From a virus (taxonomy: Duplodnaviria; Caudoviricetes), in the IMG/VR virus record IMGVR_UViG_3300036801_000089, positions 1 through 50,707 of that record: a stretch of 50,707 bases of DNA, one strand, 5' to 3'. Shown piece after piece: positions 2,054 to 50,044 of this stretch. Below the pieces are notes generated by a model. The model saw only the letters and a list, made by a program, of their open reading frames with translations. It searched no databases and was not told the DNA's origin. A program made the position numbers and the translations under genes. Positions within the stretch are counted from its first letter, which is position 1, and every line of letters begins with the position of its first letter.

Positions 2054-3058
2054 ATGGCACTCTCAGTCGGAACTGGAATTAATCAGCCTAGTGCGTTGCT
2101 CGTCAACACGCTGAACTCCATCGCGCAGAAAATGATCTTCCCGAAGGTGGCCGATCTCGTGTTTCAACCGAGTCCGACCTTCAGCTACTTGAACCAGTAC
2201 GCCAAGAAGTACAACGCAGGGGCCGAAATTGTGTACCCCTTGCTGACCACCAAGATCACCACGCGCGGTTCCTACTGGGGCGACCAGCTATTGCCGACTT
2301 CGGCGATTGACGCCATCCAGCCCGCTGACCAGGTGTGGCGCGGCTATTTCCAAGCGGTGACGCTGCCCGTGATGGACATTGTGATTGGCCGCGGCGGTCC
2401 GGTGGGCCTTGATCTGGTAAAGACCTACGTGCAGGCGGCAGCAGGCTCGATGCTGGACATGCTGGCCGAGGCGGTAGCGGGGAACTCGCCATTCAATTCG
2501 GCGACCGACCTTGACTCGATCAGCGCATGGGTACTGTCTACCACGAATACGATTGCGGGCATCAACCGCTCGACGAACACGTTCTGGCAACCGCAGGCGA
2601 ACCAGTCGATTGCTGGCTCGCTGACTCCGGCGAAACTACTGACTGCATATTTCTTGGCGACTTACGGGTACGATGAACCCAACCTGCTGATATTAAATAA
2701 TACCGACTTCGCCAAGTTCGAAGCACAGTTCACGCAGAACTCCAGTTCGGCAGCTTCGACAACCATCATCCGGGCGACTGACAACTACGCGGACACAGCG
2801 CCAATCCAGACTTCGTTCCGGTATCACATGCGGTTCAAGAACGCCGTGGTACTCGCCGACCAGCATTTTCCGGCAGGGACAGGGTATCTGCTGAATACGA
2901 AGTACATATGGATGATCTATAACATGGGGAGCTACTTCCGTATGACCCCGTGGATCATGCCTTCGAACCAGGATGTAATCACGGCGCGCATACATTTGAT
3001 CGCGCAATTGGGCTGCAACCGCCCGATCGCAAACGTAGCCCTCACGAATTTGAGCTAA
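2054..3058 (+). CDS. major capsid protein
   Basis: 334 aa, strong AAGGAG RBS, position after scaffold, capsid-like C-terminus (YLLNTKYI...LGCNRP). Confidence 0.75.
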   Translation: MALSVGTGINQPSALLVNTLNSIAQKMIFPKVADLVFQPSPTFSYLNQYAKKYNAGAEIVYPLLTTKITTRGSYWGDQLLPTSAIDAIQPADQVWRGYFQAVTLPVMDIVIGRGGPVGLDLVKTYVQAAAGSMLDMLAEAVAGNSPFNSATDLDSISAWVLSTTNTIAGINRSTNTFWQPQANQSIAGSLTPAKLLTAYFLATYGYDEPNLLILNNTDFAKFEAQFTQNSSSAASTTIIRATDNYADTAPIQTSFRYHMRFKNAVVLADQHFPAGTGYLLNTKYIWMIYNMGSYFRMTPWIMPSNQDVITARIHLIAQLGCNRPIANVALTNLS

Positions 3059-3090
3059 CGAGATTCGGTAGCAGGACAAGGAGAGTTTCA

Positions 3091-3597
3091 ATGGCAATCA
3101 ATGTCAGTTTAGAGCGCACATTCCCAGGATTTGGTGTCTCCTCACTGCAATCCATCCAACGCGCCACCGGGATTGCCGTCAGTTCGGGGACCACGTACTA
3201 CGTTCCCGGCACATCTTCGAACAGCGTGGCCGGACTCTTGGTGCCCACCGTCACGGTAGGGCGAGTGCGCGTGAAGGTCTACAACGGCAGCGGCACATCT
3301 CCAACGCTGACGAAATTGCAGATCATGGGCTTCGACGGAACGAATAGCGTCGTGATTGCCGACTGGAACTTTGGCACGGCGGTTACGCTGTCCTCGACGA
3401 GCTGGGCCGACCTGATGACTGACTTTATCTGCGATACGGCGCCATCGACGACCAGCGGCGGTGCAGTCGGGTTTTTGATTGGCAGCGCCAGCGCGGTCAC
3501 TGGCAACGGCGGGATTCAGTGCATCAAGGTCATTCCAACGCTGGGCGGCACGGGTCCAGCCTGCACGATGGACGTAGAGATTTTCGGCCTCATTTGA
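3091..3597 (+). CDS. putative capsid decoration/cement protein
   Basis: G/T/S-rich beta protein right after the capsid gene; AGGAG RBS. Confidence 0.5.
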   Translation: MAINVSLERTFPGFGVSSLQSIQRATGIAVSSGTTYYVPGTSSNSVAGLLVPTVTVGRVRVKVYNGSGTSPTLTKLQIMGFDGTNSVVIADWNFGTAVTLSSTSWADLMTDFICDTAPSTTSGGAVGFLIGSASAVTGNGGIQCIKVIPTLGGTGPACTMDVEIFGLI

Positions 3598-3616
3598 GGC
3601 GGGAAACAATTCTCCA

Positions 3617-3675
3617 CTGGTCGGCAGCGAGCCGGGGCTGGGCAAATCGCCCGGTTTCCGGCTCGTACCAGTTTT
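3617..3675 (+). terminator. long hairpin, probable intrinsic terminator or processing site after capsid genes
   Basis: GAGCCGG-GGCTGGGC/GCCCGGT-TTCCGGCTC inverted repeat followed by TTTT. Confidence 0.5.
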
Positions 3676-4594: not shown

Positions 4595-5854
4595 ATGGCA
4601 ACGACTCCCATTGCGCTGTTTAGCGGGTCGCTGGTAGGCGACGTGCTGATTCAGGCCCGCGAAACCGTCCCAGATATGCCCAGTTCGCTGCCCGCGCCCG
4701 TGGCGGCAGCGGCAGTCACGACTCCCGGTACGGGCACGCTCGCGGCAGGCACCTACTTCGTCGAAGTGACGCAGCTAAATCAGTGGGGCGAGACGCTGGC
4801 CTCGACGGAATCCGCGCAACTTACGGTTCTGGCGACCAACGCCATTCAGATCACGTCAGCACTCCAGGTCGGCGCTATTAAAATAAGAGCGTATCTGACG
4901 CAGGCGAATGGCGTTTCCGGTAGCGAATCGCAGTACGTGGAATCGGCGACATCGCCGTTCACGATTCTCGCCCCTCCCACACTCGCGGGATCTCCACCAA
5001 CCCGCAGCACGGCATGGCTCCCTGACTCGGATGGTGGATTCATCTCTGCGGGGGCTATCTATCGCTGGCTGAACGCTGGCATGGAACTCATCGCTCGGAA
5101 CACGGGCGGGTTTCAGGACTATTCGGCGATCGGCAGCGTCATCAATCAGCCGCTCTACCAGATACCGGGAACGTGGAACGCGATTACGGCCATTTGGTAC
5201 GACGGCTACTGGATGGAAGGTGGCGATCCGGGGTACTTCTGGCGACGGAACTCGATTACCAGCCAAGTGTTGTCAAAAGCACACATTTCCGTGAACAACG
5301 GAAGGGCAATCTTGGAAGTGTACCCTCAGCCGGCCAGAACCTCGATCAGCACGACGTTGGTTGGGTCACTGAGCGCCACGGCGACCACGCTGACGCTCGC
5401 AAATGCCGCTTTCACCCTACCATTCGGTTTTGTGTCGATCGGCTCGGAAATCATGGCCTACGCGACTATCAGCGGCAGTACGCTGACGGGCCTGATACGC
5501 GGGCTTGGCGGGACATCAGCCATCGCGCACACGGACGGGGAAACGGCCATCGAGTGCAATATCGCTTGGATGGGCAAACGGCAGTCCTCGCAGACGTTTT
5601 CGCCTGGGCAGTCGCTTTCTGTGTTGCCGATCAGCTCGGGATGGGACCAGCTTCTTGTCCAATACATCGCGGGGCGCGCGAAGATTGTCGAGCATGATAT
5701 GCAGTCGATGAGCGCGTTCCAGCAGGACATGGAAAAACAGATCAAGGCATGGAGCAACGTGAATAAGGGCGTCGTGCGTCGTCGGCAGGTAGGCGGAGGT
5801 AACAGTCCAATCGTGTACTACGGAGACATGGCCGGGGGGATCATCGTACCATGA
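4595..5854 (+). CDS. putative head-tail adaptor protein with inserted domains
   Basis: Position; adaptor-like segments (IYRWLNAG, LEVYPQP, LLVQYIAGRA) interrupted by T/S/G-rich inserts. Confidence 0.5.
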   Translation: MATTPIALFSGSLVGDVLIQARETVPDMPSSLPAPVAAAAVTTPGTGTLAAGTYFVEVTQLNQWGETLASTESAQLTVLATNAIQITSALQVGAIKIRAYLTQANGVSGSESQYVESATSPFTILAPPTLAGSPPTRSTAWLPDSDGGFISAGAIYRWLNAGMELIARNTGGFQDYSAIGSVINQPLYQIPGTWNAITAIWYDGYWMEGGDPGYFWRRNSITSQVLSKAHISVNNGRAILEVYPQPARTSISTTLVGSLSATATTLTLANAAFTLPFGFVSIGSEIMAYATISGSTLTGLIRGLGGTSAIAHTDGETAIECNIAWMGKRQSSQTFSPGQSLSVLPISSGWDQLLVQYIAGRAKIVEHDMQSMSAFQQDMEKQIKAWSNVNKGVVRRRQVGGGNSPIVYYGDMAGGIIVP

Positions 5855-8800
5855 GTTTTCAGCCTTTAACGCAGGGGCCGTGGCTAAAGGGATTGGTTTC
5901 TAGCAATCAGCCGCTCTCGCAGCCAAAGGGTTCATTCCCGCGCGGGTCGAATCTTGTGCTGATGGAGCGCGGTGCGCTGACGCCGTGCGATGGATCGGGA
6001 ATCATCAACTGGTTTAGCGCGGCGGTGCAGAACTCGCAGGGACGATTTATGTCACTGTTTCTGTACGAGCCTACCGGAGTGAATCCGTATTATTTAGCGC
6101 TCGCGCAGGCCAAGGATCAGCATCTCGGAGCACCGATAGCAATTTCCGCGACTCCTTCTACGGGAGGCAGTCTTACTTCGGGAACCACATATTATTATAA
6201 GATTACCGCGCTTGATGGGGTTGGCGGGGAAACGATCGCCTCGAACGAAATCAGTGGGATGCCTTCCGGGGGAAACCTATCCAACACGTTGGTATGGAAT
6301 GTTGTGCCCAATGCGTTTGGCTACAACGTCTATCGCTCGACAACTACCGGCACGGAAATTTTGCTTACTGGTAGCGGTTTGCCGCAGCTTCAACCGAATC
6401 CACTGACAGGAACGGTAACATTTATAGATGCGGGAACAGGAACAACCTCTGTCACAGCATACAACATCGTAGCATCGCCTTCTGGGGCTTTTATTGGACC
6501 TCATTCTTCTGTAGCCGGTTTTGATCTTACCGTCAATCCTGTGGTTATGCAGATTGGGCAAGTTTGGACGGTGGCTGGCTGTGGTGTTGTTGGGACATTT
6601 TCATTCAATCAAGCGTACACCATAACAGCTATTTCTGGAATTAGCATAATGGCCACAGCAACAACCGGAAACACGCAGGCATTTGGACTTGCTAGTGGTG
6701 GAGGAACGATCACTGGAGGTGGAACTTCTCCTCCAGTTTCCGACACGACGCAGCAAACAGTTCTTTTCCTCATGCCGATAGGAATGGTGCCAATTTCCTA
6801 TAGCAACTCCAATATCGTAGCCTACTTCCCGGCTTCCCTTTCCGCTCTCGGACAAGTTCCTACTGGTGGTAGTGGAGGTTCTGGCACTACAGGTCCGGGA
6901 ATCTCATGGCAGGGTTCCTCAACGCCTTCTGGTGGCGTAGCAGGCTTGGTCGGGCCACTCCCGCAGATGAAGCAGTTCACCAATCGCGTGATGATCGCGC
7001 TCGGAAACGGGTTTGCTCCGCAGATGCTTTCCGATGCCAGCGGTACACCTGTGAATCCTGCGTTTACGGGAGCGATTGCCTCAGTATCAGTTTCCGGGGA
7101 TCAAGTGACGGTGACGGTCGCTGGCAGCGTAACGATCACGACTTCCAATCTTCCCGTAGGCTCAAATGTGATTCTTTCAGGGATGAGTGATTCGACCTAC
7201 AACGGAGTTTTTCCGGTGATTACGGTAACTCCCGGAGCGGGTGGAAGTTTTGTGATTCGGAACGTCAATGCTAGTGGCGGTGCGTCTACGGGCACATTCA
7301 CAGTGTCCACGACGCCGATTATCAGCACGTTCGTTCCAGCCTACGATGCTTGGCAATCCGATTCGCCGTATGCACTAAAATCTATCATCGTTCCAGCCAA
7401 TATCCCTTGGGCGCCGAAAGTAGCGTACTCGGCGCAATCTGCGATTATCCCGACTGCTGCAAACGTGAATGGCTTTTACTTTGTGGCCACTGCGGGAGGC
7501 ACCAGTGGCGCGACGGAACCTACCTGGCCGTCGACTATCGGCAATACAGTATCGGATGGCACTGTAACCTGGACTTGTGCGGGATCAACGCTTTACTTCT
7601 ATACGGCAACTCAGGGTGGAACGAGCGCGAATTCCACGCAAAAGGGTCTCTTTGGGACTATTGTGCCAACCACCGTGCCCGCGTTTCCGCAAACCATTGG
7701 AGCAACACTAACCGATGGCAGTGTCATATGGACAAATTCCGGCTTAGTCTCCTCTTCGGCACCACCACCACCCGGCGCAGGCCACATCGAAGTCTACGCA
7801 GGATCACTGTGGGCCTTGAATACCTCACCGACGAACACAGCGAATGGCCTCGATGGTCCCTGTGCTCTCCGCATGTCGAACACCAACAACCCGAATGCTT
7901 GGAACCCGGTGAACCAAGCGTTTCTCGATAAGGACGATGGCGCGGAAGGTATGGGCATGGGGAAATTCACAATCACTGCTCAGGGCATTCCGCCGCAAGG
8001 CTCGCTCATTGCCTTCAAGTACCGCGTGCCCTACCAGATCATCGGCGTATTCGGTGCCAGCAATTTCGCTATTCAGCCGGTTTCCTCGGATATGGGATGC
8101 CTCGCGCCGCGCTCGATCACGTTCGTACCCGGCTACGGACTGATGCGCTATTCACATTTGGGAATCGCCGTGTTCAACGGCTTCCGCGACGAGGTGATTA
8201 GTGAGCAGATCCGGCCGTATCTATTCCCGGTTAATGATTTTGACTCACGCGACATTGTGGTTGCTGATGCTAATTATCTGCCTCTAAGCTGGGCCGCGCA
8301 GACGGCTAATCCGCCCATGTACGCCTTCGCCATGCCGATTGGCAATAGCGGAGGGAAACTCACGCGCATCATGCTCTACGATTTGGTCTTGAAGGCATGG
8401 GCGGCGCCCGCGGACCTCCCGTTTGCGATTGGCTGTATGGCCCAAGTTCAGCCGGTTACGTCGAATCCACTGACGATCCTTGGCGGCTTCAGCGATGGGT
8501 GCCTACAACGCTGGCAGGCCGGCGACGTGAACTGGTACACGGGCGGTGGGGCCGCAGTTCAGGAAGTGGTATGGTCGCTGCGGACGGTGACGGTAGCCTC
8601 GCAGAACTCCAGTCAGAGATTGTGGGCACGCAAGATGATTGTCCGCGGCACGGGATCGAACTCGGATACCGACCTGTTCAGCGTCATCAACGTGCAGATT
8701 CGGCAGAGCGGCGTTGTGCAATCCTCGGTAAACTACAAAATATCGAATCAGGGTGATTTCGACCTGTTCGCGGACATTGGCCTGACGGGATTGCGGTTCG

Positions 8801-8895: not shown

Positions 8896-8900
8896 GAGAT

Positions 8901-9302
8901 ATTAAAATAATAACTGTCCGCACACTCCGAGAAGAAGAACCGATGCCCCAGCACCTCGGGACTGGCTTCGAGGCTATGCCCGTGATGAAGTCGTTTTGCT
9001 GGGTGGCCGAAAAGGAAGGGCGAATTATCGGGATGCTGCTGGCGGCGCCGTGCCACGGATTGATCTTTCTAATTCGCCTGCGAGTGGCCGAGGGGGCCCC
9101 GGTGACTACCACGGCGCTGCTTTTCCGGCACTGCATGAGGGATGCTAAGGCGATGGGATTCGTAGGCTATTTTTCGTACATTGACCCCGGCAGGGATATG
9201 GAACGAGCACTGATACCGATATGCAGGCGTGCGGGCGGGATTCAGGACATGACTTTGCACGTTCCCTTGGTAGGTTCACTGGAAAAGGCGGCGAGTTTCT
9301 GA
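8901..9302 (+). CDS. GNAT-fold-like protein of the podoviral tail/ejection module (start 8901 ATT or 8943 ATG)
   Basis: CWVAEKEGRIIGML strand motif; position between nozzle and ejection genes. Confidence 0.5.
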   Translation: MKIITVRTLREEEPMPQHLGTGFEAMPVMKSFCWVAEKEGRIIGMLLAAPCHGLIFLIRLRVAEGAPVTTTALLFRHCMRDAKAMGFVGYFSYIDPGRDMERALIPICRRAGGIQDMTLHVPLVGSLEKAASF

Positions 9303-13040: not shown

Positions 13041-14128
13041 TGGTCAAACGGCTCATTATTATTTTAATACTGATCGCGTGTCCTGCGTTTTTGCACGCGC
13101 AGCAGCTTACCGTGAGCGCCACGGTTACAGGGTCGAACGGCCCGTGGGCCAATGGGACAGCCCACGCTTCCCTGGTGTGTCCAGGAAACGCCCAGGCTTA
13201 TAGCGGCACATTTCCCATTGCGCGCGATACGCCTACGGTCGCGCTCGACGGGAATGGACACTTCTCGCAGGTGCTTTTCGATACGTCACAACTCAAAGAC
13301 GTTAACGGTAGCGCGATGACGACGTGTTCTTACGTATTCAGGATCACCGAGGCGTGCGGAATCTCCAATTTCAGCACAGGTGCGCTCACGGGCATCACTG
13401 GAGCAGGGCCGGTGGACCTCACATCGCAGATCAACACGTTTACGGTGCCACTTTCGGCAGGCTGCGCGGTGCCCGCTGGCACGGTGACCAGCATTACGGC
13501 CACGGCGCCCATTGTGGTGACGCCTACCCCCCTTACAGGCATAGGCGTGGTGAGTTGTCCTACCTGCGCCGCTGGCGGGACCATCAGCATTACGGCGACC
13601 GCGCCTATTGTGATAACCCCTAGCCCGACCACAGGCACAGGCGTAATTAGTTTGAGCATCACGCCGACGACGTGTACCAACCAAGTTATCTCTGCGATCA
13701 GCGCATCCGGGGTAGGCACCTGCCACACGGTAGCGGGCGCGGACATGGCGAATAATACGGTCACAGCGACACAGCTTGCCACACAGTACAGCAAGCTGCG
13801 CTGCGACACGGGACTTGGAGACGGCCTGAACGCCGTGGCTGCGGGCACGTATCTGCAAACGAACTGCTACAACGATTCGGGAGTGACGTGGACGATCACG
13901 CGCATCGGGTGCTTCACCGACAATGGCGGGTCATCGACGCTGAACGCGACGAACGGCGCGGCAACTGGGCTGCTGACTGGTGCGGTGACCTGTACGGCAG
14001 CGGCAGGTGGCGCAGCGGGAACGCAAAGCGCAACAACGACGATCGCCAGCGGCGACGTAATCAAGTTTACGTGGGTTGCCGATGGCACCAGCAAGCAGAC
14101 GGAATGGTTTATATCTCTCACTCAATGA
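13040..14128 (+). CDS. fibre-like protein with Sec signal peptide
   Basis: MVKRLIIILILIACPAFLHA|QQ; T/G/C-rich; duplicated SITATAPIVxTP repeat. Confidence 0.7.
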   Translation: MVKRLIIILILIACPAFLHAQQLTVSATVTGSNGPWANGTAHASLVCPGNAQAYSGTFPIARDTPTVALDGNGHFSQVLFDTSQLKDVNGSAMTTCSYVFRITEACGISNFSTGALTGITGAGPVDLTSQINTFTVPLSAGCAVPAGTVTSITATAPIVVTPTPLTGIGVVSCPTCAAGGTISITATAPIVITPSPTTGTGVISLSITPTTCTNQVISAISASGVGTCHTVAGADMANNTVTATQLATQYSKLRCDTGLGDGLNAVAAGTYLQTNCYNDSGVTWTITRIGCFTDNGGSSTLNATNGAATGLLTGAVTCTAAAGGAAGTQSATTTIASGDVIKFTWVADGTSKQTEWFISLTQ

Positions 14129-19414: not shown

Positions 19415-19830
19415 ACCCACTGCCCTGTGCGCGTTTGCTCCGCGAGCCGTTCTGCGCGCGCTCCCACCTGAGTCGCCCAGCGAGACTCTAGCATTTCCGA
19501 CGCTGCACGCTCCCAATCGCCCTGCGCGAACGCGGACAGCATACGAGGGAACCCTTCTAGGCCAGCGAATCCCAAATTGAAGGTCATATTCGCCAGAACG
19601 CCTTGCCGCGCCGGATCAAGCGCCTCGAAGTAGGGTAGGCGCACCTGTAGTTGGGTGAGCACTTTCTGGATGTCATTGGAGAGAAGTAAGTCGATCTCTG
19701 TGTCGGAGAGTCCCACGTCGGTTAGGTTGCGGCCCACGCCGATCGTGGTCTTGCCCACTGTGTCGAGGTAGGGGAATTTTTCTACCCCCTCGTCACGTCG
19801 TAGTTGCGAGGAGATTGAATCGACGGGCAT
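19411..19830 (-). CDS. endolysin, GH24 phage lysozyme
   Basis: LRRDEG...YLDTVG.TTIGVGRNL catalytic E/D/T motif; NM.FNLG, S.WATQVG.RA. Confidence 0.9.
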   Translation of the reverse strand: MPVDSISSQLRRDEGVEKFPYLDTVGKTTIGVGRNLTDVGLSDTEIDLLLSNDIQKVLTQLQVRLPYFEALDPARQGVLANMTFNLGFAGLEGFPRMLSAFAQGDWERAASEMLESRWATQVGARAERLAEQTRTGQWV

Positions 19831-19843
19831 ATTATTTTAATAA

Positions 19844-23725: not shown

Positions 23726-23847
23726 AGCGATATTATTTTAATAAGTACGCAGTGTTTAACGAAGTAATGGCGCTGGTTGGCGTGGCCCTGCTGATCGTGT
23801 GCGCGTGGCTGCTGGCCGTCGCGTTTACGCCGAATGGAGGACGATGA
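23722..23847 (+). CDS. small membrane protein
   Basis: ATGA overlaps at both ends; one TM segment. Confidence 0.5.
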   Translation: MKRYYFNKYAVFNEVMALVGVALLIVCAWLLAVAFTPNGGR

Positions 23848-31851: not shown

Positions 31852-31967
31852 AAACCATCAAAGAGTGGCTAGAGTCGAAATGGTTCTTCTGTGGGAACTG
31901 TACGGCGAAACTGTGCGCCGCATGGCGACCGGCGCAGTGTCCCAAGTGCAAGGCGATGATTTATTAA
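31848..31967 (+). CDS. zinc-finger microprotein
   Basis: Manual translation ...FCGNC...QCPKC; ATGA coupling. Confidence 0.5.
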   Translation: MKTIKEWLESKWFFCGNCTAKLCAAWRPAQCPKCKAMIY

Positions 31968-32003
31968 AATAATAACGTCTGCCGACTAGAAAGGGAGAAA
32001 CCA

Positions 32004-35311: not shown

Positions 35312-35469
35312 AGCTGCCCAAGTTGCTGATTAAGCTGGCGCCAGAGGCGCGTTGCGTAAGGTGCGGGCAAGCGGGATATGTAGCGGAAAAAGCAGAACTC
35401 TGTTTAGCGTGCCTCAACGTAAGTCTTTTGATCTACGCGAAGCGGAAGAAAGCAGAGGTATTAAAATAA
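35308..35469 (+). CDS. zinc-finger microprotein
   Basis: Manual translation ...CVRCG...LCLAC; ATGA coupling. Confidence 0.45.
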   Translation: MKLPKLLIKLAPEARCVRCGQAGYVAEKAELCLACLNVSLLIYAKRKKAEVLK

Positions 35470-35471
35470 TA

Positions 35472-36881: not shown

Positions 36882-37070
36882 GTTGCCTCCGTGTTTAAAG
36901 TCCTGACCGGACTGTACCCGCTTCCGCGTGCGGGGTTACGCTCCTAGCAGGTGCGCGAAAATGCGGCAGAGAGCCAGTGTCCATGTCGCAGTCGCGGTAA
37001 GGAAGAAAACGATTTCAAAATTAGTCATTGGTTTCATAGACTTACGCTCCTATTATTAAAATAATACTGC

Positions 37071-39152: not shown

Positions 39153-40184
39153 GTGAAAGCCGCGATAGTTCTGACCTCGATCAACGACTGCGAAGAACTC
39201 CTCGACGGGTACCTTGATAATCTCAGCAGGTTTGGACGCGAAGCCAGTATTATTTTAATACCGGACATGAAAACGCGAGCGCAGAGGATTCGCAAAGCGG
39301 TCAAGTGTCCGACGATGGGGGAGCAAGATTCATTCCTCAAGATCGTGGGTTTACCACCGCAAGAAATCCCTTTCAACTCCGACAATCGCCGCAACGTAGG
39401 CTACCTGATGGCGCTGGTCGAAGGCGCCGAGATGATTGTGTCGATCGACGATGATAACTTCTGCCCAGTGAGCGAAGACTTTATCGGGGCGCACCTCGCG
39501 GCGCTGGAGAAGCACAACCCACTAGTCAGCACTGAAGATGGCTGGTACAACAATTGCAATCTGCTGAAAATCATGGGGCGGGAGATCTTCGCCCGCGGAT
39601 TCCCCTACTACGCGCGAAAACCGTTCAAGATGCACACACAATACGCGCAAGATGGGGAAGTGGTCATTAATGCGGGGATGTGGACAGGCGCGCCGGATGT
39701 GGATGCGATTACCTGGCTCCAGCGTCCCGGACACGTGGCGCGGTGCACGGGCAATGCGGTGTTGGCTCCCGATACTTGGTGCCCCATCAATTCACAGAAT
39801 ACGGCAGTGCGGCGGGACGCGATGGCCGCATATTATTTTGTGTGCATGGAAGCGCCGATTGATCGCTACGGAGATATTTTTCAAGGGTACTTCGCATTGA
39901 AGTGCGCGAAGCACTTAGGATTGACGGCGCGGTTTGGAACTCCAGTGGCGACGCATCGGCGTAACTCGCACAACTATCTGGCCGACGCGGAGAAGGAAAT
40001 TTTCGGGATCAGGCTCATGGAAGAATTGCTTCCGAAGTTGGTTGAGCATAAACTGACGGGCAGTTCGTTCGGCGAAGCGTACTTGTCGCTCGCGGATTTT
40101 ATCGAATCGCAGGACGCACAGTTTTTCAAGAACACGGCGCGCCGAATGCGGCTGTGGGCTACGACGTGCCAAAGGATCGGATGA
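39153..40184 (+). CDS. RGP/STELLO-like GT-A protein (UDP-arabinopyranose mutase-like)
   Basis: RRNVGYL.A....IVSIDDDN, GMW.G.PDVDA, PINSQNT and RYGDI motifs. Confidence 0.7.
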   Translation: MKAAIVLTSINDCEELLDGYLDNLSRFGREASIILIPDMKTRAQRIRKAVKCPTMGEQDSFLKIVGLPPQEIPFNSDNRRNVGYLMALVEGAEMIVSIDDDNFCPVSEDFIGAHLAALEKHNPLVSTEDGWYNNCNLLKIMGREIFARGFPYYARKPFKMHTQYAQDGEVVINAGMWTGAPDVDAITWLQRPGHVARCTGNAVLAPDTWCPINSQNTAVRRDAMAAYYFVCMEAPIDRYGDIFQGYFALKCAKHLGLTARFGTPVATHRRNSHNYLADAEKEIFGIRLMEELLPKLVEHKLTGSSFGEAYLSLADFIESQDAQFFKNTARRMRLWATTCQRIG

Positions 40185-41174: not shown

Positions 41175-41459
41175 GTGAAAATTTCCAAGTGGGTTGACAT
41201 GTCACAGGAAGTAGAAATTGAAATTGGCTGTGACGACATCCGCGGTGCACTAGCGGAACAGTTTGCCATCGTCGCGGTTGACGGGTCGCATGCGGGCGAA
41301 CTGACGTTGGCGTTTAGCTGCATCGCTAAGTTTTTTAATGCCCTCGCTGATGAACAGATAGCGTTATTGACCATCAATCAACGCCGTGTCGTTGGGAACT
41401 ACCTGAGCGATCAGGCCAAGCGATTCGCAATCACCGAAGTTGCGGGCCACGCGGTCTAA
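41175..41459 (+). CDS. hypothetical protein
   Basis: GGAGG RBS. Confidence 0.55.
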   Translation: MKISKWVDMSQEVEIEIGCDDIRGALAEQFAIVAVDGSHAGELTLAFSCIAKFFNALADEQIALLTINQRRVVGNYLSDQAKRFAITEVAGHAV

Positions 41460-41553
41460 CAGAACCAAGATTTGAGCACGGCGACCGAGCACGCAGCACC
41501 AAAGTAGAGTTGCGGGCCACGCGGTTTCAGAAAAGATTTTTGGGATAAAACCT

Positions 41554-42912: not shown

Positions 42913-43622
42913 GACTCAGTATTATTTTAATAGGCCGCTCCGATAATTACGGCGGCGACTTCGTAGGCCGCTTAAACCGCTCACTGGAAAGCATCATGCC
43001 GCTCGGTGCCGAAGTGATCTTCGTCGAGTGGAATCCGCTCGGCGACCGCCCGCGCATCAACACTGAGATTCGACATCGCGGCGTGCGCATCATTACCGTG
43101 TACCCGGAAGTTCACCGCTCGCTGCCGGGACATGAATTGTTTCCAGTATTCGAGTACCGCGCAAAGAACGTGGGGATTCGCAGAGCAAAGGGCGACTGGA
43201 TTCTGTGTCTAAACTCGGACATCATCCTGAGCGAACAAATGCTGCGGTGCCTCACTTGCTCATTCGATGACACCTGTTTTTACCGAGCGCGGCGGCACGA
43301 CATGGACGGCGAGAGACTGGTGCAAATCTGTGATGGCCCAGGAGACTTCGTACTTATGCACAGGATTCGCTGGAACCATCTTCGCGGATACCTTGATCTG
43401 GTAAGCTACACACACCTTGACTCGCTGCTATTGTGGAATGCGCTCGACGCGGGCCTGCAAGATGCGAGGCTTGAGGCTCCCATCATCCACCAGGAGCACG
43501 ACCGCAGCGAACACAAACTGCGAACCGGAATCCATTCCAGCGACATGCCCAAGTTTATCGGAATGAAAAACGACGAGGATTGGGGACTCGCAAACCATCA
43601 ACTGCCCGAGGTGACGACGTGA
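42909..43622 (+). CDS. GT-A (family 2-like) glycosyltransferase
   Basis: R.D.YGGDF..R, AKNVGIRRA.GDWIL..NSD, GDF.L, HQEH. Confidence 0.8.
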   Translation: MRLSIILIGRSDNYGGDFVGRLNRSLESIMPLGAEVIFVEWNPLGDRPRINTEIRHRGVRIITVYPEVHRSLPGHELFPVFEYRAKNVGIRRAKGDWILCLNSDIILSEQMLRCLTCSFDDTCFYRARRHDMDGERLVQICDGPGDFVLMHRIRWNHLRGYLDLVSYTHLDSLLLWNALDAGLQDARLEAPIIHQEHDRSEHKLRTGIHSSDMPKFIGMKNDEDWGLANHQLPEVTT

Positions 43623-44629
43623 AGGTTGGCTTGCTATACCCGACAGTCGGTGCTCTCGTAGAAAAAATGGCGGCAATTTTCCCCGGACTCACCGTCATAG
43701 GCCCGCCCTGCGACGATCTCTACAAATGGGATAAGCGCATCCTGCCGCTCGCCAAGGCCAACGGACGCATCGCGGAGTGGAAGGAACTGGGCCTCGACAT
43801 TCACTTCGAGGAAAAGCCCTACAGCGAATGCGACTTCTCGAAGTTCGATCTACTGATCGAATCGGTCGAAACATTCAACTACGCTGCATCGTGGCGCGAG
43901 CACTGCACACGTATCGAGTGTCCCATTATCGTGTTCGTCTGCTGGTACGATTCCCCAGCCTACCTTCCGCACGACTACCTCAAGAAAATAGAAAACTTCC
44001 CAGTCCTGCTCGGGATGCCTTCGCACTTGAATGCGTGGCGCGCTGCGCTGCCTGACGTGAACCCCGCTGCTGTTCCGGTAGGCGACTGGTGGTTCGAGCG
44101 TCCGTGGACAGGAGTGCGCGAGGAAGCCTTGTTCGTGCTAGCGGGCAAGGACATCTGGCGCCCTGCGGACAAGACGGTGTGCGGCGTGGATCTGTGGGAA
44201 AAACTCTGTGAACGGTTTCCAGGAAAGATGCACCACCACGACGGAGCGATCGACTTCAAGACCTCGAAGCAGATGGCCGAGATGTGCAGCGAGTATCGCG
44301 TGTTCGTGAACCTCGACCGCAGCGGTGCGCGCCCACTGTGTACCTCGTTTACGGAAGCGGTTGCTGCGGGAATGCCCGTAATAGCTCGGAATCAGCCGGG
44401 ATTGTCCTACAAGGATTACATTAACGGAAACGGGGTCTGCACAGATAATTTCGACGAGATGTGTGATTTCATTGAGCAGTGTTTTGAAAACATGGAGTTT
44501 GCGCGGGAGTGCAGCCGCCAAAGCCGTAAGATTGGCAAAGCGTCATTCTCGGTCGAGGCGGTGCGCCCGACTTACGAAGAGGCGGCGGTGCGCGCGATGG
44601 CCGTGTTTCACCAGGGGCATTGGCGATGA
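43619..44629 (+). CDS. GT-B (family 4-like) glycosyltransferase
   Basis: YRVFVN...SFTEAVAAGMPVI...NG motif. Confidence 0.75.
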   Translation: MKVGLLYPTVGALVEKMAAIFPGLTVIGPPCDDLYKWDKRILPLAKANGRIAEWKELGLDIHFEEKPYSECDFSKFDLLIESVETFNYAASWREHCTRIECPIIVFVCWYDSPAYLPHDYLKKIENFPVLLGMPSHLNAWRAALPDVNPAAVPVGDWWFERPWTGVREEALFVLAGKDIWRPADKTVCGVDLWEKLCERFPGKMHHHDGAIDFKTSKQMAEMCSEYRVFVNLDRSGARPLCTSFTEAVAAGMPVIARNQPGLSYKDYINGNGVCTDNFDEMCDFIEQCFENMEFARECSRQSRKIGKASFSVEAVRPTYEEAAVRAMAVFHQGHWR

Positions 44630-45456
44630 TCTCCCTACTTCTCCCATCCCGCAAGCGCCCGGAGATTTTCGCACGCATGGTCGAATCGGTAAGAAAGACC
44701 GCGATAAAATATGTCGAGATTGTGGCTATGTTTGATGAGGACGACGAAGCGAGTGCCGAGGCTGCGAAGGTTGATCCCAAGACATGCGCCGATATTATTT
44801 TAATAGGACCGCGCCTGCGCCAGATGACCGTATATTGGAATCTATGCTTCGATCATTGCAAGGGGGCGATTGTCTGCCAAGCAAACGATGACATGGTGTT
44901 CACCACAAAGGGTTGGGATGTAATGGTCGAGGATGCCTTCGCAGCGGTGCCCGACAAGATCATGCTGGCGCACGGCTCCGATGTATTCGGTCACGGCAGT
45001 AACTTTGGACCGCACGCCTTCGTAAGCCGAAGGTGGGTCGAAGCACTGGGATATTTTATCCCTCCGTACTTTTCGTCAGATTTCGGCGACGCTTGGATTT
45101 GCGAGATAGCGAACATGCTCGGTCGCCGGCGCTTCCTGAATTTCAACATTGAACACAGACATTTTTCCCACGGCATGATGGAGCTGGACGAGAACACAGC
45201 CGAACGGCTCCAGCGGCACCGCGAGGATGATCCCGAAACGCTGTACTACAGTCCAGCGATGCAAGCGGAACGGCAGCGCGACGCTGAGAAACTAGCGAAA
45301 CTCATGGACAAAAACCTGAGCACAAAGGGCTGGTGCCCGCCGCATTCGAACATACGAAGCGCGGGGATGTGCCCGCATTGCGAGAGCCTGTCGACCGTGG
45401 CAGTGGGCGTGGGGAAGTTTTTTTGCAACCGCTGCGGAAAAGACTTCGTGAGATGA
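44626..45456 (+). CDS. GT-A glycosyltransferase with C-terminal zinc ribbon
   Basis: ISLLLPSR.RP, NDD, T.GWD, D.W..I, IEHRH; tail CPHCESLSTV...CNRCG. Confidence 0.8.
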   Translation: MISLLLPSRKRPEIFARMVESVRKTAIKYVEIVAMFDEDDEASAEAAKVDPKTCADIILIGPRLRQMTVYWNLCFDHCKGAIVCQANDDMVFTTKGWDVMVEDAFAAVPDKIMLAHGSDVFGHGSNFGPHAFVSRRWVEALGYFIPPYFSSDFGDAWICEIANMLGRRRFLNFNIEHRHFSHGMMELDENTAERLQRHREDDPETLYYSPAMQAERQRDAEKLAKLMDKNLSTKGWCPPHSNIRSAGMCPHCESLSTVAVGVGKFFCNRCGKDFVR

Positions 45457-46121
45457 AACTCGAACTCCTAATCCTTAGTATGCCAACCCGCGTAGAATTT
45501 CTGAAGCGGTTGCTTTTGTGTCTTGCACGTCAACGTGAGGGAGTTGGGAACGTAGCAGTGCGGATCAGAACATGCGATCCAAGCCTTACTCTCGGGGAGA
45601 ACCGCGAGCTATTGCGACGGGCTTCCAATGCCGAGTACATTGCTTTCGTCGATGATGACGATCTCGTGGCTCCAGATTATGTGTCCACAATTCTGCCACT
45701 ACTTGACGGCGTGGACCAAATTGGTTTTGAACTTCAATGCTATATCGACGCAGTAGCCCTGCCAAAAAAGACTATTCATTCATTGAGGCATACCGGATGG
45801 TTTGAAAATGCACTCGGATATTTTCGGGACATCTCGCATCTAAATCCGATGCGGCGCGAACTCGCGCTACTTGAACCGATGGAAGGCGGGCACGGAGAGG
45901 ACAAACGATGGTCGGATCGGATGCGCGGGAAGGTCAAGACGGAACACTACATCCCGCGAGTCATGTACCATTATTATTTTAATACGAAGAAGAATCAGGG
46001 TGCGCCGTGCCCGAAATGCGCGAGCGAATCAACGGTGCTGGTCGAGACGGGAACATGGTGCAACGGCTGCGGGGTTCTGTTTTCGGAACATCCTATTCAG
46101 AAGTCGTGTCTTTGGGTGTAG
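45453..46121 (+). CDS. GT-A glycosyltransferase with C-terminal zinc ribbon
   Basis: LGENR..L, EYIAFVDDDD, GED..W; tail CPKCASESTV...CNGCG. Confidence 0.8.
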   Translation: MKLELLILSMPTRVEFLKRLLLCLARQREGVGNVAVRIRTCDPSLTLGENRELLRRASNAEYIAFVDDDDLVAPDYVSTILPLLDGVDQIGFELQCYIDAVALPKKTIHSLRHTGWFENALGYFRDISHLNPMRRELALLEPMEGGHGEDKRWSDRMRGKVKTEHYIPRVMYHYYFNTKKNQGAPCPKCASESTVLVETGTWCNGCGVLFSEHPIQKSCLWV

Positions 46122-46551: not shown

Positions 46552-46956
46552 TTAATGTACCTCAACGGGTGGAACTTCCACGTCGGAAGGTCGCTGCCGA
46601 GCTTTGGCTTCCAGTGCCGCAATCTCTTCCTTAGTCAGTTCCGGTATCGGAACAGCGGGTGGCTTGAGAGGTTGACCACACCAATAGCAAAAATTATCTT
46701 CGGCGTCTGCAATTCTGCCGCACTTGCAGGATATGCCGTGAATAATCCTTGTCCCGTCAACTCTGCACCAAATATCGCCATCTTGAGGCACCTTACTACA
46801 TTTTAGACATGCTGATCTTGACGGGATAGCAGTATTGATCTGCGCTGGTTGTTTATCCATCATTGCGCGCACGGTGGGTTTGCACATACACCTACACTGG
46901 GGATCAATGCACGCAGCGTGCTGTCCGCTAACACAAGCCTCGCAAAAACCTGGGAT
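46552..46956 (-). CDS. double zinc-ribbon protein (start 46956 ATC or 46887 ATG)
   Basis: CLKC..WCRVDG..CKCG..FCYWCG. Confidence 0.6.
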   Translation of the reverse strand: MPGFCEACVSGQHAACIDPQCRCMCKPTVRAMMDKQPAQINTAIPSRSACLKCSKVPQDGDIWCRVDGTRIIHGISCKCGRIADAEDNFCYWCGQPLKPPAVPIPELTKEEIAALEAKARQRPSDVEVPPVEVH

Positions 46957-46977
46957 AAAGCACCTCTCTGTAAATTA

Positions 46978-47157
46978 TTATTTTAATACTGGCCGCTTGC
47001 GCTTCCATCGGGCTAGTGCGGCGTCGCGGGCCTTCAAACGGTTAGCGCGTGACTTCGCAGGACTCGATACTCTCCCGCCTTTGGCGCCACGGCAGGAGAG
47101 ACACGGGAATGGCCGTGAGTGAATTGCGCAGATGCCTTGAGTTTGTGTTCCTCTCAT
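46978..47157 (-). CDS. small basic protein
   Basis: GAKGG...K...AALARW motif. Confidence 0.55.
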   Translation of the reverse strand: MRGTQTQGICAIHSRPFPCLSCRGAKGGRVSSPAKSRANRLKARDAALARWKRKRPVLK

Positions 47158-47485: not shown

Positions 47486-47668
47486 ATGCCGACTGACACA
47501 ATCCAAAAGCACAATGCTTCAAGTTATACCGTGGCCGAAAATGTCTGTTCAAGGCACGGTCACACCCTAGCTCTCTTTGCAGTTGATAAACCAAACAAAA
47601 AAGAGACTTTCCTGTGTAGCAAATGCGGGCTGTCTCTCGATGAAATACGTAAAGGGGAGATGGACTAA
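47486..47668 (+). CDS. small zinc-binding protein
   Basis: AGGAG RBS; C..HGH...CSKCG. Confidence 0.55.
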   Translation: MPTDTIQKHNASSYTVAENVCSRHGHTLALFAVDKPNKKETFLCSKCGLSLDEIRKGEMD

Positions 47669-48219
47669 TGGGAATGTCCGCTGAAGCCCGCGCTGCCGCA
47701 TCCGAGCGCATGAAAGCGATGCTCGCCAAGAAACGCGAGAAGAAGTCTGCCGTCGATCCCGCCCTACAAGAAGCGATGGCGAAGCAGCCGATACGGTCTA
47801 GCGCAAATGTTCCAGACACGGCTAACTCTACTGGACTACCACCCGTCACGTTTCATGTTCCCGAAGGTCAGTCGCAATATGTTCCCAACTCAATAAATGT
47901 CGCAGTGGACTGGGAAAGAACGCCAATGCCCGAGGCGCAGACCTTCTACGCGCACCTGAAAGCAGAGTTCGAGAAGGCAGGGAAGATCCTCAACGCCCGA
48001 TCCAGCGAGCGCACAATGGGATATACCTGCTTCATGTGCAAGAAGCACTTTGCCGGCAATCCGGGCTTCACGGACTATTCGTACCGTGATCCAGATACGG
48101 GACTCTCACCTCGGGTGGACTGCTGCGGGGAACTCTGTGTGATCAACTACCACAAATTCAGGATTGACATGCGCCTCGCGGAAAACGTGAAGCGCGGCGC
48201 CGAGCAGCGGGGAGAGTAG
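47668..48219 (+). CDS. hypothetical protein upstream of terminase
   Basis: Coupled to terL; small-subunit role unproven. Confidence 0.55.
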   Translation: MGMSAEARAAASERMKAMLAKKREKKSAVDPALQEAMAKQPIRSSANVPDTANSTGLPPVTFHVPEGQSQYVPNSINVAVDWERTPMPEAQTFYAHLKAEFEKAGKILNARSSERTMGYTCFMCKKHFAGNPGFTDYSYRDPDTGLSPRVDCCGELCVINYHKFRIDMRLAENVKRGAEQRGE

Positions 48220-50018
48220 TGAAAGCGCCAGAACAAACCTGGCTTGACCGCTCCCGCCAACTCTTTACTCGCCTCCCCGTCCGACACATTTCAACGCAGC
48301 GAATGGCCCCGTTTATTTTCAATCCTAACCAGGAACTTCGCTGGCGCATGATCTGCGAGCAGTGGCGCACGCAAAAGATTATCCGCATCATCGACCTAAA
48401 ATCTCGTCGCGTGGGAGTCTCCGCGCAGACCGATGCGATGATGTGGGCATTCGCTCTGGCCTTCCCGCACATGAACACAAAGATCGTGGCGCACTTGGCA
48501 GGGTCAGCCGAAGAATTGTTCCGCGTACCCTCAGACCTCGCGCGCGCATTCCCCGGATTCCCGCTAGAAGATATTCAGCAGAAGCGATTGCTGTTTCGCC
48601 ATCCTGACGGGGATAGCCAGATGACGATGGCGACGGCGGGCACACCGTCTGCGGGACGCGGCGGAACCCTGTCCGCGCTGCATCTTTCCGAAGCTGCCTT
48701 CTATCCTTCGGACGAATCGTTTACGTCCATGATTTCCTCAGTCAGCAAGGGCGAAGGCAGCATCATCGTGATCGAGTCCACGGCGAATGGAAGGGAGGGA
48801 CCAGGTGAAGCGTTCGCGGAATACTGGGAAAACGCGGTGGCTGGTCGCAACGGCTACATTCCAATTTTTCTCGGATGGCTCAATGACCCGCAGTGTCGTC
48901 GTCCTGAAGAAGAAGCTGGAGATGCCCCGAAGGACGATCTTGAAAAAGAATTAATGCTCCCGCCGTTCAATGCCACGCGCGAGCAGATTGCGTGGATGCG
49001 GAGAACCAAGTCAGACGACTGCCGCGGACAGGAAGTTAAGTGGCTGCAAGATTTTCCGCACTGTCCCGAGGTTGCTTTTCAGGTGTCAGGTTTCCCTGCG
49101 TTCCCGCGTGAGGAGTTAGCCTATGCCGAATCGACGATCAAAGACCCGCTATGCCGAGGCAAGTTCGAGCGCACCCCTGTAGCGCCGGGATATAAATTCG
49201 TGCGCGATGACATGGGACCAGTATTCCTATGGAAGTTTCCCTACGATGAACGAAAGAAGCCCGATGGACTGCACTACTATGTGGGCGCGGACGCGGCACT
49301 GGGAACCGAGGAAGGCGACTTCGCGGCTTATGTCTGCATCTGCGGGGAAACCGGGGAACTGGCTGCTAGATTTGCCGAACGCATCGCACCGGAAGTTCTG
49401 GCCGACCAGCTTGATATGTGCGGAAGATTCTTTAGCACCGCAATGCTGAACATCGAGTTAACCGGGAACCTCGGGCGCTGGGCGCTTATTATTTTGCGCG
49501 ACAAATACCGCTACCCGAAGATTTACGCATGGAAGGGCCGCGACGACCGGAAGCGCGGCAAGAGCCGGAGCATTGCTCTCGGATTCGAGATGAACCAAGC
49601 AACACGCCGACTGATCGTGGACGCTGCGCGGCACGGGATTCGCATGGGCATTAAGCAGGAGCCGGGAGCACTTCGCATTCACGACCGCGCACTGATGAGT
49701 CAATTGTCGCTGATGACGATCAAGGAATGGCGCTGGGAAGTGCTGCGGGATCACGACGACATTGCCGTAGCTTGGATGATTGCGTGTTTGACGCGAGAGC
49801 AGTATCCTCCTGCGCGTATGAAGTTCGCACCTAAGAACACGATGGACCCGGAGAATCCGCGAGCTATGCTCGATGGTTTGCCGATCAAAGAAGAAATTTC
49901 TGGCTTCCTGAGGCAAGAAATGTACCAGACAATGACGCGCTCGGGCCTGCGGCGGGACTCGAACGGCTGGATGAAGGGGAATGGACGCCGGAAGATCGAC
50001 CGACTCGCTGGAATCTAG
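48219..50018 (+). CDS. terL: terminase large subunit
   Basis: Walker A KSRRVGVS, Walker B LHLSE, IESTANG coupling motif, RNase H-like GAD...HDD. Confidence 0.9.
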   Translation: MKAPEQTWLDRSRQLFTRLPVRHISTQRMAPFIFNPNQELRWRMICEQWRTQKIIRIIDLKSRRVGVSAQTDAMMWAFALAFPHMNTKIVAHLAGSAEELFRVPSDLARAFPGFPLEDIQQKRLLFRHPDGDSQMTMATAGTPSAGRGGTLSALHLSEAAFYPSDESFTSMISSVSKGEGSIIVIESTANGREGPGEAFAEYWENAVAGRNGYIPIFLGWLNDPQCRRPEEEAGDAPKDDLEKELMLPPFNATREQIAWMRRTKSDDCRGQEVKWLQDFPHCPEVAFQVSGFPAFPREELAYAESTIKDPLCRGKFERTPVAPGYKFVRDDMGPVFLWKFPYDERKKPDGLHYYVGADAALGTEEGDFAAYVCICGETGELAARFAERIAPEVLADQLDMCGRFFSTAMLNIELTGNLGRWALIILRDKYRYPKIYAWKGRDDRKRGKSRSIALGFEMNQATRRLIVDAARHGIRMGIKQEPGALRIHDRALMSQLSLMTIKEWRWEVLRDHDDIAVAWMIACLTREQYPPARMKFAPKNTMDPENPRAMLDGLPIKEEISGFLRQEMYQTMTRSGLRRDSNGWMKGNGRRKIDRLAGI

Positions 50019-50044
50019 TATTAAAATAATAATGGAGGCGAACC

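Follow-up and report, generated by a model that had tools for sequence, protein, structure and literature searches.

Why does a phage genome with a G+C content of 0.50-0.59 in the window carry the same AT-only palindrome, letter for letter, at 13 places? The genome in question is that of a tailed phage, IMG/VR record IMGVR_UViG_3300036801_000089 (hereafter G000), estimated to be 91% complete; the window analysed here is the whole stretch of 50,707 bases. The palindrome, TATTAWWWTAATA, has two inverted arms of 5 base pairs (bp) around a centre of 3 bp. Here, we describe a network of such sites that is real, strongly selected and lineage-specific, with copies that stand near gene starts and at the junctions of mosaic genomes. 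As its best explanation we favour, at somewhat below even confidence, an operator-like site for a phage-encoded dimeric DNA-binding protein that would have been acquired together with an early-gene module, and that would also serve as a recombination junction.

An exact palindrome confined to one sub-lineage

An earlier note on this DNA had drawn attention to 13 exact copies, eight in one form and five in the other, and this count holds. The copies are one asymmetric 13-mer in two orientations, read eight times as TATTATTTTAATA on the plus strand and five times as its reverse complement, TATTAAAATAATA. Chance expectation is far below one copy, as the note had estimated: base composition predicts about 0.0005 copies, dinucleotide shuffles (n = 100) contain a mean of 0.00, and a backwards-read control of the window contains 0 and 0. 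Codon-aware shuffles, which the note had proposed as a check and in which synonymous codons are permuted within our own calls of open reading frames (ORFs) and intergenic bases are shuffled, gave a mean of 0.05 copies and a maximum of 1 (n = 200). A 14th copy of the 13-mer (L012:5827) lies in contig L012, which is 100% identical to both window ends and bridges them with 4,278 further bases (L012:1875-6152). Because of this bridge the genome measures ~55 kb, and because L012 joins both ends the G000 record is a circularly permuted or terminally cut version of it.

All 29 copies in G000 and its relative G001 have perfect arms, TATTA and TAATA, and the centre is always TTT/AAA; AT-only arms would pair by chance in 1/32 of cases. 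The outer bases are weakly mirrored, with CAT on one side (C in 19/29, A in 18/29, T in 16/29) and ATG on the other (A in 10/29, T in 13/29, G in 10/29), counts that are not independent because the 29 copies include 10 homologous pairs. The 13-mer is the invariant core of a ~19-bp (8-3-8) palindrome, CAT-TATTA-TTT-TAATA-ATG, of which the extension is weak, and this anatomy agrees with the earlier suggestion that the 5-3-5 symmetry points to a dimeric protein. No position outside the motif is conserved within ±90 nucleotides (nt) of the copies. Besides the exact copies, the three near copies seen before were found again, at 2691, 4876 and 6190; two-mismatch matches at 26051 and 37051 look like chance or self-overlap.

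Capsid searches returned 26 related loci, and ten related records were searched in full (seven complete with terminal repeats, two linear and 98-99% complete, and one 52% complete). One of these, G001, has a capsid 99% identical to that of G000 and carries 16 copies, and the nine other relatives (40-91% capsid identity) carry none. Conservation in relatives, which the earlier note had asked about, thus stands for the 10 sites that are identical in G000 and G001, but does not extend to these nine. Among all fetched relatives' loci, the motif is present only in pieces of G001 and in L009 (two copies), L012 (two) and L014 (one), which are fragments close to G000 and G001. It stands at homologous places in the G001, L009, L012 and L014 contigs and is not the assembly artefact that the earlier note had thought possible. 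The alignment of G000 with G001 spans only 44% of G000, at 66-94% identity. Both are set apart from the other relatives by a different early region (23.7-37 kb), and the genes that they have in common and that are absent from G003-G007 include 23722-25975, 33075-35767, 36238-36411 and 36936-37037. The 13-mer is lineage-specific, being confined to the sub-lineage with this different early module.

No substitute motif was found in G003-G007, in which no 11-14-mer occurs more than seven times and those of the most repeated words (2-7 copies) that were inspected are local. Two of the local arrays are of some interest in themselves: three 14-mers at 31-bp spacing with an iteron-like look in G005 (L049, 21436-21512), and four 13-mers at about 400-bp spacing in G004 (L046/L047, 38902-40098). 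A scan of the viral collection for the 16-mer CAT plus motif revealed no further motif-bearing lineage among the matches listed, which beyond G001 are single chance matches in AT-rich contigs, plus the unrelated contig L154 with 53% G+C. Two other unrelated IMG/VR contigs, L120 and L133 (44-46% G+C), share a repeat of ~40 nt that contains the 13-mer followed by ATG; it occurs twice per 4-kb contig, and the contigs bear no similarity to the G000 phage.

The host is probably a soil acidobacterium, because capsid relatives are located on two contigs binned into Acidobacteriota genomes (Bryobacterales, 87% identity; Terracidiphilus, 41%) and because the stretch is present, as contigs, in three soil-metagenome DNA runs; binning is weak evidence of a host and not proof. 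No RNA run is listed among those holding the sequence. In 42 Acidobacteriota genomes (~240 Mb; the two binned genomes plus 41 sampled from the order of one of them, distinct ones counted), the 13-mer occurs 0 times, with about 0.7 copies expected by chance. It is therefore not a host-wide signal of the Chi or uptake-sequence type, and any protein that recognises it would have its targets in phage DNA alone. For the same reason, the proposal that the copies are decoys for a host protein finds no support in these genomes.

Sites made in place, near gene starts and at mosaic junctions

At the 10 sites common to G000 and G001, 130 of 130 motif positions are identical, compared with 424 of 495 (86%) in the homologous 45-nt flanks (P about 2e-9), and purifying selection appears to keep these shared sites. 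At 39248, 42920 and 45972, motif-less relatives align gap-free, and the motif therefore arose by substitutions. KIFLI and NFYLI (G003 and G004) correspond to SIILI at the first of these sites, SIVTS (G003) and SVVMA (G004) to SIILI at the second, and YHYYFRT, written with C-ending codons in G003 and G005, to YHYYFNT at the third. The near copy in the capsid gene came about by four synonymous changes: G000 and G001 read CTG ATA TTA AAT AAT ACC where five relatives read CTG ATY CTG AAY AAC ACN, and all versions encode LILNNT. An exact 13-mer would create a stop codon in this gene, and G000, G001 and L014 carry the 12-nt form instead. Near copy 4876 involves four synonymous changes and one non-synonymous change. 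Positive selection thus seems to have made sites in place within conserved genes, some of them at the cost of amino acid changes, and site turnover continues, with site 44793 found in G000 only (DIILI, versus PMIF in G001) and six sites found in G001 only. Synonymous recoding, origin in place and the difference between motif and flanks bear out the earlier claim that selection acts on the DNA itself; the two reading frames on which that claim had rested, YYFN and IILI, are confirmed.

To describe orientation, we call a copy A-form when TATTAAAATAATA reads toward the gene and T-form when the opposite orientation does. Using automatic ORF calls, which are crude (about 80 in the window), 6 of 13 copies in G000 (P 0.002) and 9 of 16 in G001 (P 6e-5) lie within 30 nt of a start codon, compared with 12-13% of random positions; with starts hand-checked against relatives, 9 of the 13 G000 copies are near a start. 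Copies lie between -89 and +360 nt from starts. Four loci have an ATG whose first letter is the final A of the motif, namely the lysozyme gene at G000 19830, G001 3352 and G001 49107 (a VanY/M15 endolysin and the homologue of 33075) and L014 8737, and at two more (35459 and G001 44734) the ATG follows 0-2 nt past the motif. The other upstream copies are followed by 13-89 nt that contain a Shine-Dalgarno sequence. Copies upstream of genes are mostly A-form; relative to local transcription, G000 has 5-6 A-form and 7-8 T-form copies, and orientation is mixed inside genes too. Copies within genes are read in those frames of the word that stay open, as IILI (in two cases the core of a signal peptide), as YYFN and once as IKII. 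Lipobox-like signal-peptide cores (…LIIILIL…AC) house the motif in 13040-14128 and in G001 at L039 9373-10476(-) and 7535-8710(-), the first of these copies lying in …RLIIILILIAC… and being kept in G001 (10450); the word is tolerated in the coding context of such a hydrophobic core. Along the genome, the copies are spread more regularly than random placement would give. Gap lengths in G001 have a coefficient of variation of 0.56 (P 0.011), and the largest gap measures 5.3 kb once two 5-2-5 near copies are included post hoc (P 0.00015); for G000 alone the regularity is marginal (P 0.07).

Copies also coincide with the places where G000 and G001 stop resembling each other. Seven of the 13 are no more than 12 nt away from a point where G000-G001 homology ends, a count inflated by the conserved word, which anchors local alignments; the rate is 4.5% when positions are drawn at random (P 5e-7) and 24% when gene starts are used instead (P 0.02). 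Three of these junctions are clean, with one flank 89-98% identical, the other at random level and the switch at the motif edge. At 23731, 14/45 positions are identical to the left and 41/45 to the right; at 37054, the values are 17/45 versus 40/45, and at 46976 they are 8/45 versus 44/45. Here, a contig of run X2 also stops matching at 46989, one base past the motif. Site 44793 is a divergence step only, across which protein homology continues, and at 50019 the junction, formed by an HNH_3 gene, lies 25 nt past the motif. At 35459, the small gene directly after the motif is present in G000 and missing in G001. Site 8900, kept in G001 (14778) and L014 (8737), has three different neighbouring arrangements in these three strains, and in L014 it is followed by a different gene with an ATG that overlaps the motif end. 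The endolysin slot is filled by non-orthologous genes, Phage_lysozyme (19411-19830(-)) in G000 and VanY/Peptidase_M15 (L039:3364-3822) in G001, and the ATGs of both unrelated endolysins overlap the last A of the motif. The lineage specificity, even spacing, start association and junction placement of the motif had been missed by the earlier note.

A separate observation concerns the 8900 site in G001, which holds an extra Cys-rich gene of 153 codons (L039:14796-15257). On either side of this gene stands a 23-nt direct repeat, which takes in the first motif arm and looks like the footprint of an insertion by short-homology recombination.

Table 1. Motif copies, near copies and selected genes of G000 (window coordinates)
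Feature	Position	Strand	Form or sequence	Context
Exact copy	8900..8912	+	TATTAAAATAATA on +; A-form toward downstream gene	intergenic; 4 nt past stop of 5851-8895, 30 nt before ATG 8943
Exact copy	13057..13069	+	TATTATTTTAATA on +	17 nt past ATG of lipoprotein gene 13040-14128, within signal peptide
Exact copy	19830..19842	-	A-form on - strand	last A is the A of the lysozyme ATG (19411-19830(-))
Exact copy	23731..23743	+		9 nt past ATG of small ORF 23722-23847; reads YYFN
Exact copy	31962..31974	+	A-form	29 nt before ATG 32004; G000 only
Exact copy	35459..35471	+	A-form	supplies TAA stop of 35308-35469; ATG 35472 directly after
Exact copy	37054..37066	-	T-form toward gene	between stop of ATPase 37071-37742(-) and Shine-Dalgarno sequence plus ATG 37037 of a 33-amino-acid ORF
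Exact copy	39248..39260	+		RGP-like glycosyltransferase gene 39153-40184, near codon 32; reads SIILI
Exact copy	42920..42932	+		11 nt past TTG start of GT2-like gene 42909-43622; reads SIILI
Exact copy	44793..44805	+		glycosyltransferase gene 44677-45456, near codon 39; reads DIILI; G000 only
Exact copy	45972..45984	+		GT2-like gene 45333/45612-46121; reads YHYYFNT
Exact copy	46976..46988			divergent intergenic region, 89 nt upstream of leftward gene 46552-46887
Exact copy	50019..50031	+		directly past stop of large terminase 48219-50018, 13 nt before ATG 50045
Near copy	2691..2702	+	TATTAAATAATA; 12-mer with 2-base centre (5-2-5)	in major capsid gene; also in L014
Near copy	4876..4888	+	TATTAAAATAAGA; 12/13 match	in gene 4595-5854
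Near copy	6190		two mismatches	
Major head protein (capsid)	2054-3058			
Lysozyme	19411-19830	-		Phage_lysozyme, E 2.4e-9
Candidate motif-binding protein	33075-33704	+		209 amino acids
Small HNH endonuclease	34153-34488	+		111 amino acids; Pfam HNH E 1.8e-4; PHROG HNH families
Hjc-like PD-(D/E)XK-fold protein, predicted	34964-35311	+		115 amino acids
AAA/clamp-loader-like ATPase	37071-37742	-		
Large terminase	48219-50018			
HNH_3 homing-type endonuclease gene, free-standing	50045-50551			Pfam E 1.7e-15; inserted just downstream of large terminase

Candidate proteins and other genes

Which protein could read the word? Our candidate is the product of 33075-33704, which is found in G000 and G001 (82% identity) and is absent from G003-G007. 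Its 12 homologues, of which P0006-P0012 are 41-61% identical to it, include none with a Pfam domain, and searches for loci encoding relatives gave G001 alone in the viral collection, a single 2.9-kb metagenome fragment and nothing in genomes. It has no Pfam match itself, PDB sequence and profile searches returned nothing relevant, and Foldseek against PDB returned nothing. The AlphaFold2 model is all-helical (mean pLDDT 78), with no N-terminal ParB/CTPase domain visible. When this model was searched with VIA-align, four of the eight best rows were ParB/KorB/Spo0J DNA-binding domains with Z scores of 5.0-6.3, namely ParB 6s6h_B (Z 6.3, root-mean-square deviation 3.7, 95 residues aligned), KorB 8qa8_A (Z 5.8) and 1r71_A (Z 5.0), and Spo0J 1vz0_A (Z 5.7), all aligning to residues 24-132. 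Atlas leads for this protein are all sub-0.9, including 'DUF1016/ParB HTH' at 0.86. We treat the predicted ParB/KorB-like fold as a lead only. Pairing of the protein is supported by a predicted homodimer that scored 0.58, with the best of three controls at 0.00 (own alignment); a score of 0.58 is reached by 20 of 30 proteins solved as pairs and by 1 of 23 solved as single chains. At least 83% of contacts recur between runs, and the partner has a pLDDT of at least 76.

Two further genes of the same region encode nuclease-like proteins. The product of 34964-35311 is 95% identical in G001 and absent from G003-G007; its Atlas lead is Hjc (score 0.88), its model has a mean pLDDT of 90, and its best Foldseek rows, all weak (E 0.02-0.1), are Hjc resolvases and restriction-endonuclease folds. 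The small HNH endonuclease of 34153-34488 is 74% identical in G001 and ~35% identical in G004 and G005, which have no motif. Another lineage-specific pair, 23844-24611 (weak PHROG exonuclease match) and 24614-25975 (phrog_10048, zinc ribbon), may form a recombination module of an exonuclease and an annealase. Homologues of 24614-25975 occur at 44 loci, of which 43 are outside the lineage (soil phage); these 43 show no motif, nor any dispersed repeat among the eight highest-count 12-mers inspected there, which are all tandem arrays.

Two ribbon-helix-helix (RHH)-like proteins, encoded by 23567-23725 and 38717-39142, have similar N-terminal segments with weak FitA-like_RHH matches, and each gene is located just upstream of a motif copy. 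RHH proteins had been put forward as possible readers of the motif; we rejected them, as they have no detectable homologue in G001, which carries it.

Most early genes of G000 are without a known family. The set of sugar and sulphate genes (20713-22915(-) and 39153-46121(+)) is unusually large for a 55-kb phage and includes an APS kinase, a sulfotransferase fused to a glycosyltransferase domain, an RGP-like glycosyltransferase, a B12-binding radical-SAM protein and three or four more glycosyltransferases; their products may add sugars or sulphate to virions or to the surface of the host. Gene 40232-40897 encodes a C-5 cytosine DNA methylase. The HNH_3 gene is missing from L009 and G001, which otherwise align across the spot. 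A tRNA search of the window found none, and megablast of both window halves against the GenBank phage set gave no match.

What the word may do

The dispersed operator network proposed by the earlier note is also the reading that we prefer, with the confidence given at the outset. We infer the binding itself, as well as the identity of the binder and the effect of binding, from the pattern of the sites. A homodimeric DNA-binding protein, possibly the product of 33075-33704, would have entered the G000/G001 lineage with its distinctive early-gene module. Selection would then have created sites about every 3.5 kb by point substitution, preferring the entrances of genes and operons, and a dimer bound there would control transcription in the manner of an operator or roadblock, comparable to the KorB operators of RK2 or to stoperators freed of their polarity. 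With identical copies at many gene boundaries, the word could also offer a microhomology junction for cassette exchange between related phages, although such a junction role is probably a by-product under any reading. The perfect dyad, the identity of the centre at the level of the duplex and the mixed orientation favour a dimeric protein on double-stranded DNA and count against a promoter or RNA signal; TTT and AAA are the same duplex and different RNAs, which argues for recognition of double-stranded DNA. The start association, the graded near copies and an autoregulation-like placement, in which the G001 motif overlaps the ATG of the 33075-33704 homologue and copy 31962 heads the G000 gene run 32004-33704 that ends with the candidate gene, favour a regulator over an enzyme.

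Several observations weigh against this operator. The sites are stricter than most operator sets and closer to an enzyme recognition site, with only one one-mismatch copy beside the 13 exact ones. The six loci at which a start overlaps or abuts the motif, leaving no room for a Shine-Dalgarno sequence, are all A-form (6/6, two-sided P 0.03), a bias that a purely symmetric role at the DNA level does not predict. At G001 3352, a terminator hairpin (minimum free energy -19.5 versus a background median of -9.6) is located directly upstream of the endolysin's motif-ATG, which would suit a promoter; this is the only copy that a terminator-like hairpin adjoins. As for the candidate binder, its fold matches stay under Z 8, the tool's caution line, and may reflect a common helical arrangement; it hits no ParB, KorB or HTH family by sequence (Pfam, PDB profile); and about 15 other genes share its phyletic pattern, which therefore does not single it out. 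The 44 ORFs of ~80 in the window that were scanned against Pfam include no ParA/IncC or KorA partner, no repressor and no integrase.

In a more novel reading, which we consider unlikely, the copies might be addresses spaced ~3.5 kb apart, at which a phage-encoded ParB/KorB-like dimer is loaded to coat, organise or gate the chromosome, and which double as standard cassette connectors. The near-total exactness, the two nuclease genes and the junctions keep in play, at a rather low probability, a recognition site for an endonuclease or nickase (the protein of 34964-35311 or 34153-34488), whose breaks would start recombination or recombination-dependent replication and turn the sites into hot spots of cassette exchange, resembling the localised nicks known in T5-type and tf-type phages. 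All-or-none recognition would account for the shortage of one-mismatch copies and for 29 of 29 identical copies in two genomes, a palindrome fits a dimeric restriction-like enzyme, and both nuclease-like genes lie within the lineage-specific module. The even spacing, the seven sites at homology breakpoints, the three arrangements at 8900, the endolysins swapped at the motif and a candidate host group that would be spared (0/42 genomes) fit as well. However, nick sites would not be expected to associate strongly with gene starts, near copies under coding constraint suggest graded affinity rather than strict cleavage, and the breakpoint counts are inflated by alignment anchoring, 44793 and 50019 not being clean junctions. 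Moreover, genes for Hjc-like resolvases and HNH proteins are commonplace in phages, and motif-less G004 and G005 also have the HNH gene.

The remaining readings place the signal elsewhere. The AT-only late promoter of T4 and the short promoters of phage RNA polymerases provide precedents for a phage-specific promoter or initiation element, with transcription from near the motif's last A giving leaderless or short-leader mRNAs, and promoter-stem-loop cassettes have been described as recombination linkers in T4-type phages. Such an element would explain why starts fall at motif position 13 at four loci and 0-2 nt later at two, why a Shine-Dalgarno sequence follows the other intergenic copies, and why the endolysin copy in G001 comes directly after a terminator hairpin. 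Even spacing, as for phage promoters, and restriction to the lineage with a different early module agree with it, and -10-like hexamers are present in both orientations, with a scanner pairing some copies with weak -35 boxes. We nevertheless think a promoter quite improbable, as it gives no reason for the palindromic form, the orientation relative to genes is mixed, and at seven loci the copy falls within a well-supported gene, either in its first 8-17 nt or in its middle. Copies 8-17 nt past starts (13057, 23731, 42920, G001 8684/10450/33013) would give start-less transcripts. In addition, no position is conserved around the motif, the ORFs scanned include no gene for a sigma factor or an RNA polymerase, and sigma-70-like matches in 30-50 kb number 14 versus 12.2 in shuffles, which is no excess. 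An A/U-only signal in the leader or early coding region of the RNA, which would drive or repress translation initiation or mark a cleavage site, is very improbable, despite positions of -30 to +17 around starts that fall within the ribosome footprint, genes without a Shine-Dalgarno sequence that abut the A-form, and two orientations that both read UAUUA-WWW-UAAUA in RNA. AAA and UUU centres are two different RNAs, and others would be expected if the centre did not matter in RNA; a 5-bp A-U stem is too weak to fold, and mid-gene copies 39248, 44793 and 45972, the capsid near copy and the even spacing would be left unexplained. It is just as hard to believe in a pure recombination linker, kept only for module swapping and read by no protein. 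The junction association and the possible exonuclease/annealase pair speak for it, but second-order selection is too weak for non-synonymous and fourfold synonymous recoding or for 130/130 identity, 13 bp is very short for homologous exchange, and the 43 other phage loci with 24614-25975 homologues have neither the motif nor a dispersed repeat.

Dispersed repeats in other phages and plasmids

Dispersed short phage repeats (stoperators, start-associated sequences and the Cluster O repeats) are known and mostly unexplained. Our literature search, which covered such related repeat systems and not this sequence, found no description of the motif or of this phage group. New here is that motif-less close relatives reveal sites made one by one by substitution after a module swap, a datable case in which a network of regulatory or organisational sites arose de novo. 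The network is tied to cassette exchange at exact junctions and thereby bears on the origin of phage mosaicism. If the ParB/KorB-like candidate is the reader, it would represent plasmid-style global control in a phage of uncultured soil bacteria and, with a 13-mer absent from 42 candidate-host-group genomes, an orthogonal protein-DNA pair. If the copies are addresses and connectors, they would provide an actual case of the linker sequences that the modular theory of phage evolution postulates, and endolysins and small early genes would be exchanged among the phages sharing the system.

The earlier note had likened the motif to the stoperators of mycobacteriophage L5. The Cluster A stoperators (bound by gp71 in L5), which are described in PMC4351075 and PMC3203893, are likewise 13-bp sites with many dispersed copies, at gene boundaries and inside genes, and imply genome-wide control by one phage protein. 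They are asymmetric and oriented with transcription, whereas the motif described here is symmetric and mixed in orientation, and on these points the analogy fails; repressor and integrase families had no match among the ORFs scanned in G000. The start-associated sequences (SAS) of Cluster K are, according to excerpts of PMC3203893, a 13-bp word with 11-19 copies that is tied to translation starts, sometimes holds the upstream stop and is essentially absent from the host genome, with its function unexplained. The link to starts, the occasional supply of an upstream stop and the absence from the host group are shared with our motif. Unlike the latter, the SAS described there is an asymmetric word with a single orientation that includes AGGAG, precedes starts by 3-7 bp and is restricted to the non-structural half of the genome; the motif has no Shine-Dalgarno sequence and occurs on either side of starts, in mid-gene and over the whole genome.

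By analogy, the closest mechanistic model would be KorB of the IncP-1 plasmids RK2/RP4. Its operator, OB, is a 13-bp palindrome. On RP4, KorB binds 12 operators, as stated in an excerpt of PMC7314908. Both systems place about a dozen copies of a short palindrome on a replicon of ~55-60 kb (13-14 in G000, 16 in G001), and in the KorB system one element-encoded dimeric regulator of the ParB family controls many operons as well as its own. The best fold matches of our candidate binder, weak as they are, are KorB/ParB DNA-binding domains. In contrast to KorB, the candidate has no ParB/KorB signature at the sequence level and no N-terminal ParB/CTPase domain in its model, it has no ParA/IncC or KorA partner among the 44 scanned ORFs, its sites hug start codons rather than promoters, and the replicon is a phage, not a plasmid.

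The closest analogue of the motif itself is found in the Cluster O mycobacteriophages (Corndog and relatives), in which a 17-bp repeat, TGTTCGG-NNN-CCGAACA, forms more than 30 invariant 7-3-7 palindromes, according to excerpts of PMC4351075. The same excerpts report a TTT/AAA centre in 29/34 Corndog sites, presence of the motif in all five phages of the cluster, few if any copies at insertions, deletions or rearrangements, and a function that is unexplained, with a dimeric DNA-binding protein inferred. Both systems have invariant inverted arms 3 bp apart and a TTT/AAA centre (13/13 in G000), tens of copies genome-wide in intergenic, 5′-end and mid-gene positions without an orientation rule, no integrase seen, and a dimeric binder as the presumed reader. 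The phages of the two systems are not known to be related. The repeats differ in their arms, which are G+C-rich and 7 bp long in Cluster O and AT-only and 5 to 8 bp long, with unrelated sequence, in G000, and in number, with 34 sites per genome there and 13-16 per ~55 kb here. Furthermore, many copies here stand at mosaic junctions, in contrast to the repeats of Cluster O, which are rarely found at rearrangements, and relatives with 90% capsid identity lack the motif here, which exposes its origin by point mutation. The G000 motif is an analogue of the Cluster O repeats, not a member of that family.

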